Positions 25,601 to 28,600 of a stretch of 64,000 nt of DNA are shown one piece after another. Positions within the stretch are counted from its first letter, which is position 1. Every line of letters starts with the position of its first letter. The stretch lies in the NCBI RefSeq assembly GCF_057098645.1, contig NZ_CM169472.1. One strand, 5' to 3'. Made by a program: the position numbers.

Positions 25601-28600
25601 GCCGAATCTATTTTTGGCGAGCGAGTAGTACATGGGTATTTTGTGCTTTCTGCGGCAGCGGGTCTGTTTGTCGATGCCGGAGTTGGTCCGGTCATTGCTA
25701 ACTATGGGCTGGAAAACTTGCGTTTTATCGAGCCAGTAAAACCAGGCGATACCATCCAGGTGCGTCTTACCTGTAAGCGCAAGACGCTGAAAAAACAGCG
25801 TAGCGCAGAAGAAAAACCAACAGGTGTGGTGGAATGGGCGGTAGAGGTATTCAATCAGCATCAAACCCCGGTGGCGCTGTATTCAATTCTGACGCTGGTG
25901 GCCAGGCAGCACGGTGATTTTGTCGATTAATCGGTGAATGAAGGGCAACGACCAATAGTTGCCCTTTTATTTCACCAAATTTTGTGACGTTGTCACATTA
26001 TGCATGATGTATATATCTATTTTCAGGGCACCCACTGTATGAAAAGCTGGCACACCTGCCAAACAACCTGGCAGGTGCAGGCAATCCCCTTTACATCAGT
26101 ACTGATAATGTGAACCTGACTAAACCGCCCACAGAGCGCGGTTGCTAACAAGAACACAACATCTGACGAGGTTAATAATGGGAAGCCCCTCTCTGTATTC
26201 TGCCCGTAAAACAGCCCTGGCGTTGGCAGTCGCCTTAAGTTTCGCCTGGCAAGCACCGGTATTTGCCCACGGGGGCGAAGCGCATATGGTGCCAATGGAT
26301 AAAACGCTTAAAGAATTTGGCGCCGATGTGCAGTGGGACGACTACGCCCAGATCTTTACCCTGATTAAAGATGGCGCGTACGTGAAAGTGAAGCCTGGTG
26401 CGCAAACAGCAATTGTTAATGGTCAGCCTCTGGCACTGCAAGTACCGGTAGTGATGAAAGACAATAAAGCCTGGGTTTCTGACACCTTTATTAACGATGT
26501 TTTCCAGTCCGGGCTGGATCAAACCTTTCAGGTAGAAAAGCGCCCTCACCCACTTAATGCGCTAACTGCGGACGAAATTAAACAGGCCGTTGAAATTGTT
26601 AAAGCTTCCGCTGACTTCAAACCCAATACCCGTTTTACTGAGATCTCCCTGCTACCGCCAGATAAAGAAGCTGTCTGGGCGTTTGCGCTGGAAAACAAAT
26701 CGGTTGACCAGCCACGCAAAGCCGACGTCATTATGCTCGACGGCAAACATATCATCGAAGCGGTAGTGGATCTGCAAAACAACAAACTGCTCTCCTGGCA
26801 ACCCATTAAAGATGCCCACGGTATGGTGTTGCTGGATGATTTCGCCAGTGTGCAGAACATTATTAATAACAGTGAAGAATTTACCGCTGCCGTGAAGAAG
26901 CGCGGTATTACTGATGCGAAGAAAGTGATTACCACGCCGCTGACCGTAGGTTATTTCGATGGTAAAGATGGCCTGAAACAAGATGCCCGGTTGCTCAAAG
27001 TCATCAGCTATCTTGATGTCGGTGATGGCAACTACTGGGCACATCCCATCGAAAACCTGGTGGCGGTCGTTGATTTAGAACAGAAAAAAATCGTTAAGAT
27101 TGAAGAAGGTCCGGTAGTTCCGGTGCCAATGACCGCACGTCCATTTGATGGCCGTGACCGCGTTGCTCCGGCAGTTAAACCTATGCAAATCATCGAGCCT
27201 GAAGGTAAAAATTACACCATTACTGGCGATATGATTCACTGGCGTAACTGGGATTTTCACCTCAGCATGAACTCTCGCGTCGGGCCGATGATCTCCACCG
27301 TGACTTATAACGACAATGGCACCAAACGCAAAGTCATGTACGAAGGTTCTCTCGGCGGCATGATTGTGCCTTACGGTGATCCTGATATTGGCTGGTACTT
27401 TAAAGCGTATCTGGACTCTGGTGACTACGGTATGGGCACGCTAACCTCGCCAATTGCACGTGGCAAAGATGCACCCTCTAACGCAGTGCTCCTGAATGAA
27501 ACCATCGCCGACTACACTGGCGTACCGATGGAGATCCCTCGTGCTATCGCGGTATTTGAACGTTATGCCGGGCCTGAGTATAAGCATCAGGAAATGGGCC
27601 AGCCCAACGTCAGTACCGAACGCCGGGAGTTGGTGGTGCGCTGGATCAGTACAGTGGGTAACTATGACTACATTTTTGACTGGATCTTCCATGAAAACGG
27701 CACTATTGGCATTGATGCCGGTGCTACGGGCATCGAAGCGGTGAAAGGTGTTAAAGCGAAAACCATGCACGATGAGACGGCGAAAGATGACACGCGCTAC
27801 GGCACGCTTATCGATCACAATATCGTGGGTACTACGCACCAACATATTTATAATTTCCGCCTCGATCTGGATGTAGATGGCGAAAATAACAGCCTGGTGG
27901 CGATGGACCCGGTGGTAAAACCGAATACTACCGGTGGCCCACGCACCAGTACCATGCAAGTTAATCAGTACAACATTGGCAATGAACAGGATGCCGCACA
28001 GAAGTTTGATCCGGGCACGATTCGTTTGTTGAGTAACCCGAACAAAGAGAACCGCATGGGCAATCCGGTTTCCTATCAAATTATTCCTTATGCAGGTGGT
28101 ACTCACCCGGTAGCAAAAGGTGCCCAGTTCGCCCCGGACGAGTGGATCTATCATCGTTTAAGCTTTATGGACAAGCAGCTTTGAGTAACGCGTTACCATC
28201 CTGGCGAGCGTTTCCCGGAAGGCAAATACCCGAACCGTTCCACTCATGACACCGGTCTTGGACAATACAGTAAGGATAACGAGTCGCTGGACAACACCGA
28301 CGCCGTTGTGTGGATGACCACCGGCACCACGCATGTGGCCCGCGCCGAAGAGTGGCCGATTATGCCGACCGAATGGGTACATACTCTGCTTAAACCATGG
28401 AACTTCTTTGACGAGACGCCAACGCTAGGGGCGCTGAAGAAAGATAAGTGATTGTTTCAGACTAAAAAAACGGCACCAGGTGCCGTTTTTTACTTACGCG
28501 CGAACAAGATTAATACCGTACACACACCGACTTGGTTTCACACCAACCGTCCAACCAGTCCGGGCCAAAATCACGGCCTGTTCCTGACTGCTTCATCCCA

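Follow-up and report, generated by a model that had tools for sequence, protein, structure and literature searches.

A premature opal codon in tynA, very likely marking a pseudogene within a decayed aromatic amine module of Escherichia coli O145:H28

The amine oxidase gene tynA is interrupted by an in-frame TGA at codon 669 in the stretch of 64,000 nucleotides analyzed here (hereafter the window), which belongs to contig NZ_CM169472.1 of the RefSeq assembly GCF_057098645.1 and is numbered from its first letter. This allele, W669*, is very likely an ordinary nonsense pseudogene that arose by near-neutral decay once the gene had lost its regulator and the pathway downstream of it. Gene, enzyme and type of lesion are all established knowledge, and public assemblies already contain the allele. 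The locus serves as an example of the stepwise decay of a dispensable catabolic module and matters little beyond annotation and typing.

A Single Base Change in tynA

Translation of positions 26178–28451 in one frame yields 668 residues up to FMDKQL, a single stop and then VTRYHPGERFPEGKYPNRSTHDTG...TLGALKKDK, followed by the normal stop codon at 28449–28451. The premature TGA stands in the reading gac aag cag ctt TGA gta acg cgt tac cat and leaves 668 amino acids of a gene that comprises 757 codons from the ATG at 26178, with 89 amino acids being removed. The unbroken frame of ~757 codons is therefore absent from the window, and the list of open reading frames likewise lets the tynA frame end at 28184. 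The gene is divided as follows:

26178–28184, plus strand: 5' portion of tynA, from the ATG to the premature TGA (translation, PDB alignment, Pfam)
28182–28184, plus strand: premature opal codon 669, with the mutated base 28184, G to A (comparison with relatives, all of which have TGG)
28185–28451, plus strand: 3' remnant of tynA, untranslated, 88 codons and the normal TGA (positions 326–407 of PF01179 still matched)

The initial annotation had assigned the gene to tynA, located the opal codon at the same place with 668 residues left and 89 lost, and stated that the frame runs on into the normal TynA C-terminus. The assignment is borne out by the genome matches, the annotation of relatives, the PDB alignment and the Pfam domains, the extent of the lesion by the translation, and the continuation of the frame by the translation together with the alignment to ECAO chains in the PDB.

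The best matches of the tynA region are E. coli O145:H28 chromosomes, with 24 complete genomes listed at 100.0% and two at 99.9% identity. Over 2,401 bases (26100–28500), the sole difference between the window and strain RM13514 is position 28184, which is A in the window and G in RM13514 and converts TGG to TGA. The tynA gene of K-12 has TGG (Trp) at codon 669 as well, and the solved ECAO structures feature Trp at the equivalent mature position 639. The proposal that one change from TGG to TGA suffices thus holds in the comparison with both RM13514 and K-12, and the premature stop can be traced to an identifiable mutation. Chance is not at issue for this stop; the flanking 2.4 kb match 24 complete genomes in all but one base.

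The Truncated Amine Oxidase

The ECAO chains in the PDB align to precursor residues 31–757, so that the mature number of a residue equals its precursor number minus 30. According to this alignment, the 668-residue product consists of the signal peptide (1–30), the domains N1 to N3 and the initial ~80% of the catalytic domain. PF07833, PF02727, PF02728 and PF01179 all score above their gathering thresholds in this product, so that the domain architecture of the enzyme is recognizable with a catalytic domain that is partial. PF01179 is split by the stop: the product covers profile positions 2–324 and the orphaned tail positions 326–407 of 407, in agreement with the earlier statement that the truncated protein lacks part of its catalytic domain. 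The tail corresponds to mature residues 639–727, i.e., ~20% of this domain.

Among the residues required for catalysis, the TPQ precursor Tyr496 (mature Tyr466) is kept upstream of the stop within an NYDY motif; the segment STVGNYDYIFDW, which aligns to chain residue 466, has the N-Y-D/E-Y form. His554 and His556 (mature His524 and His526) are kept as well. The codon of His719 (mature His689), located at 28332–28334, lies 3' of the TGA, and of the three copper-ligand histidines (mature His524, His526 and His689) the last is therefore lost along with the signature that surrounds it:

28317–28358, plus strand: copper-binding signature PS01165, TTGTTHVARAEEWP, codons 714–727, downstream of the stop and lost

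The histidine of this signature is the copper ligand mature His689 in the ECAO numbering. The residue identities at 667, 670, 672, 678, 679 and 689 in the PDB alignment agree with that numbering. The ligand assignment accordingly rests on PS01165 as given in PMC4640556, on the three-histidine statement in PMC3382800 and on the ECAO numbering; the labels "His689" and "His524" were not found in open-access full texts. The PROSITE signature PS01165 reads TtGttHVaraEEwP (Elovaara et al., 2015; PMC4640556). In copper amine oxidases, the catalytic domain forms one large beta-sandwich, the metal is bound by three conserved histidines during TPQ biogenesis, and the conversion of Tyr to TPQ, a self-processing reaction, depends on the metal site (PMC3382800).

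Following this scheme, translation would stop after residue 668 and give a product without mature residues 639–727. The loss of this tail would take away the third copper ligand, His689, as well as the final strands of the beta-sandwich of the catalytic domain. With the Cu(II) site incomplete, Tyr466 should be unable to undergo its copper-dependent self-processing to topaquinone. The fragment is hence expected to form neither the copper site nor the cofactor and to be inactive, because positions 326–407 of PF01179 and the copper signature with His689 are missing; probably it is also misfolded. Inactivity had already been considered probable in the initial annotation, and as the expected outcome it gains support from these two losses.

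State of the Surrounding Module

The genes around tynA belong to the same catabolic route, and their condition in the window is given below:

19045–19300, minus strand: 3' remnant of paaK with the deletion junction (~19297–19300) (comparison with K-12)
19272–23600, minus strand: remaining paaA-B-C-D-E-F', with paaC (21617–22363) intact in the window
23885–25930, plus strand: paaZ, intact, upstream neighbor of tynA (list of open reading frames, annotation of relatives)
28465–28491, no strand assigned: hairpin AAAAAAACGGCAC-CAG-GTGCCGTTTTTTT between tynA and feaB, which are convergent (folding, MFE -15.5 kcal/mol, z = -2.77)
28510–30009, minus strand: feaB, phenylacetaldehyde dehydrogenase, intact in the window (open reading frame, comparison with relatives)
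30245–31150, plus strand: feaR, a pseudogene for the AraC-type activator that acts on tynA and feaB (codon 60, 30422–30424, changed from TGG to TAG)

The nonsense change feaR W60* is present in the window and in exactly the 26 of 26 complete O145:H28 genomes, where feaR is flagged with "internal stop" by RefSeq. FeaR, an AraC-type activator, regulates ECAO and feaB (PMC4640556). Without it, expression of tynA and feaB should be lacking; nevertheless, tynA may be transcribed to some extent independently of FeaR. In addition, a deletion of 4,951 bp relative to K-12 takes the end of paaF, all of paaG, paaH, paaI and paaJ, and most of paaK, so that the shortened paaF is joined at its end to the final ~255 nt of paaK. 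This deletion was found in the window, in SRR8751452 and in all three complete O145:H28 genomes whose annotation was examined. As paaG-J and most of paaK are deleted, phenylacetate cannot be activated or degraded.

Two further lesions occur together in 20 of the 26 complete O145:H28 genomes, namely feaB Q151* (CAG to TAG) and a frameshift in paaC caused by a 1-bp deletion. The window has neither of them, as position 29559 is G (A in those genomes) and its paaC is intact. Conversely, tynA W669* is confined to the sublineage of the window (0 of 26 complete O145:H28 genomes). Altogether, at least five independent inactivating lesions affect the module, and the partners of TynA in the pathway are inactivated as well, by the feaR and paaG-K lesions in the window lineage and by those of feaB and paaC in the sister clade. 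Growth tests on phenylethylamine or tyramine would not isolate the effect of W669*, since the sister genomes with TGG already have feaR W60* and the paaG-K deletion.

The hairpin between tynA and feaB is flanked by runs of A and T and is probably a bidirectional intrinsic terminator; a scan for consensus terminators between the two genes made no call. No polar effect is expected from the tynA stop because tynA is the last gene of its unit, the convergent feaB being next.

Distribution of the Allele

A 65-bp probe centered on the stop gave no exact match among 3,252 tynA-bearing complete E. coli genomes, and the W669* allele is absent from all complete RefSeq E. coli genomes. In a collection of 15 billion proteins, the exact 668-residue product was found on 21 contigs from NCBI, Logan and ENA, and the contig look-up gave at least 24 carrying contigs and 34 index blocks; these 21–34 carrying contigs may include reassemblies of the same reads, the demonstrably distinct pair being the window and SRR8751452 only. 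The Logan contig of SRR8751452 equals the window (16178–38184) in 22,006 of 22,007 bases and has the TGA in common with it. The lone mismatch, at 32875, makes this contig a determination separate from the window, and the allele is thus reproduced in independent data. The window also differs from its closest complete relatives, C325 and Z1323HEC0422, at several other sites besides the stop. This points to the tynA stop as the marker of a real clonal sublineage known only from draft assemblies, and not to a sequencing error. Accordingly, W669* could serve as a clade-defining SNP within O145:H28, being present in a couple of dozen drafts and in none of the complete genomes.

Alternative Explanations

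That the true genome reads TGG and the A at 28184 was miscalled is most improbable. Such an error would need to concern one base only, and G stands at this site in all 26 complete O145:H28 genomes and in every other complete genome with tynA. Still, the truncated product was called on at least 21–24 contigs from three source collections, the short-read assembly of SRR8751452 has the same A yet differs from the window elsewhere, and the A lies outside any homopolymer. Further sublineage-specific changes common to the window and SRR8751452, e.g., a 175-bp inversion, argue for a distinct clone. The objection that resequencing should return TGG is effectively answered by the public contigs, which include an independent SRA assembly. 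Scarcely any probability can be given to programmed recoding either, by which the UGA would be read as selenocysteine or by efficient read-through to yield a full-length functional enzyme. In E. coli, near-cognate tRNA-Trp is known to decode UGA, which here would bring back the wild-type Trp, and the downstream tynA frame is still fully intact. Nevertheless, the folding of the 69 nt after the UGA against 200 shuffles disclosed no SECIS-like or unusual structure, with an MFE of -13.5 kcal/mol compared to a shuffle mean of -14.0 (z = 0.19; 112 of the 200 shuffles fold as well). The sequence after the UGA is the same as that after TGG in the sister genomes and, as it equals that of the TGG alleles, no SECIS or read-through element has evolved. 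Moreover, the +4 base is G, UGA-G being a fairly efficient context for termination, and non-K-12 E. coli have a fully active RF2 variant. Background misreading by tRNA-Trp should be very low here, although any such event would restore the wild-type protein, and there would be little tynA mRNA to read through because FeaR is lost.

Selection in favor of the inactivation of tynA, feaR, feaB, paaC and paaG-K in this STEC lineage is unlikely. A possible driver would be a lower release of H2O2 into the periplasm, or of toxic aldehyde, from aromatic amines of the diet or the host. ECAO does release H2O2 into the medium (PMC4640556). The at least five lesions are gathered in one ~13-kb module of a very young lineage, and of the six variants between the window and RM13514 inside the module, three inactivate a gene. 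A handful of intra-lineage variants that includes two nonsense changes and one frameshift is somewhat above the neutral expectation and leaves some room for selection. Nevertheless, the counts are very small and the enrichment came to attention post hoc. As feaR is broken in 26 of 26 genomes, neither tynA nor feaB should be expressed, and further knock-outs would be without benefit; in addition, ~40% of E. coli genomes simply lack tynA, and no link to pathogenicity was reported (PMC4640556). If adaptive loss were true, it would imply selection against aromatic-amine oxidation in the bovine or human gut niche and hence residual FeaR-independent expression of tynA.

Near-neutral decay therefore remains the preferred explanation. 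In the intact pathway, TynA converts phenylethylamine or tyramine to the aldehyde, FeaB forms phenylacetate from it and the Paa enzymes degrade the latter; this route would already have been non-functional in the lineage. The tynA stop was presumably tolerated since feaR W60* and the loss of paaG-K had come first, and it would represent a later near-neutral step that has its parallels in the feaB Q151* and paaC frameshift lesions of the sister clade. We infer the neutrality of W669* from this setting. Compared to K-12, 47 of the 2,274 nucleotides of tynA are changed, but apart from the stop only 5 amino acids; this proportion of nucleotide to amino acid differences indicates purifying selection until recently. 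At the species level the gene is dispensable, and it is missing from 2,143 of 5,426 complete E. coli genomes (~40%).

Further Observations in the Window

Several features of the window outside tynA distinguish it from its relatives. A 175-bp segment (17192–17366) is inverted relative to RM13514, C325 and Z1323HEC0422, where it is 100% identical on the opposite strand. It ends 2 bp upstream of the start of pdxI (minus strand, ATG at 17191), and its inversion would replace the 5' UTR and promoter region of this gene. Matches to the segment were obtained in 5,143 complete E. coli genomes, not one of which has it in one piece in the orientation of the window; SRR8751452 does have this orientation. 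A search for inverted repeats flanking the inversion found none. In K-12 (1465062–1474013, compared to 17192–17420 of the window), ynbG and a large IS-disrupted ydbA pseudogene lie between paaY and pdxI (ydbC). As pdxI almost directly follows paaY in this lineage, ydbA is absent from it.

An insertion of ~1.31 kb (8806–10112) within ynbD, which is absent from RM13514, C325 and Z1323HEC0422, disrupts this gene in the window strain. Its minus strand features overlapping frames of 108 and 296 amino acids, as is typical for elements of the IS3 family, and it is presumably IS629-like, judging by its size and OrfA sequence. In abgB (~51213–52658), the window has 8 bases, GGCAAGGC (51610–51617), that are missing in C325 and Z1323HEC0422; the translation of 481 amino acids is intact in the window, and the gene is flagged as frameshifted in those two genomes. 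From 42569 onward, uspF is directly joined to ttcA, dbpA, zntB, dgcM and abg, as in C325, whereas RM13514 has a lambdoid prophage with a frameshifted nleC and tail genes at the uspF-ttcA junction. SNPs private to the window relative to the closest complete genomes are located at 32875, 40461, 41397, 41652 and 54408, i.e., in ydbH, the nifJ-ompN spacer, ompN (two sites) and near ogt. Together with 28184 these make six SNPs, of which five would be G:C to A:T transitions provided that the window has the derived base, a polarity checked against K-12 for 28184 and 32875 only.

Implications and Comparison With Known Systems

With regard to annotation, tynA in the genome of NZ_CM169472.1 should be marked as a pseudogene with an internal stop. 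Metabolic models of O145:H28 should omit the catabolism of phenylethylamine, tyramine and phenylacetate, whichever tynA allele is present. A search of the literature on O145 with tynA, feaR or paa returned nothing on the W669* allele or on the decay of the module in O145:H28.

The locus is orthologous to that of K-12 TynA/ECAO (b1386; PDB 1OAC, 1DYU, 1D6U, 2W0Q) and features the same order of paaZ, tynA, feaB and feaR. The window encodes the same signal peptide, the same layout of N1-N2-N3 and catalytic domain, the TPQ tyrosine and His524/His526. Unlike in K-12, codon 669 is TGA and the product ends at mature residue 638, without His689 and the last ~82 profile positions. The closest comparison is offered by tynA of the complete O145:H28 genomes (WP_000535437.1; RM13514 and C325), which is one base apart over 26100–28500 and is accompanied by the same feaR W60* and paaG-K deletion. 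These genomes keep TGG, and their tynA is annotated as intact with 757 amino acids by RefSeq; in the 20 of 26 that have them, feaB Q151* and the paaC frameshift add a difference from the window.

A gene without function is also known from other isolates of the species. Amine oxidase activity was detected in only 22 of 39 tynA-positive isolates; the authors conclude that a strain with tynA need not have a functional enzyme and call it a reserve gene (Elovaara et al., 2015; PMC4640556). The tynA-positive but activity-negative isolates of that study resemble the window in having the gene without its function, which for the window is a prediction. The isolates sequenced there had mutations outside the conserved catalytic residues, whereas the window has a nonsense codon that removes a copper ligand. 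Moreover, the window differs from them in that the regulator and the downstream pathway are broken as well.
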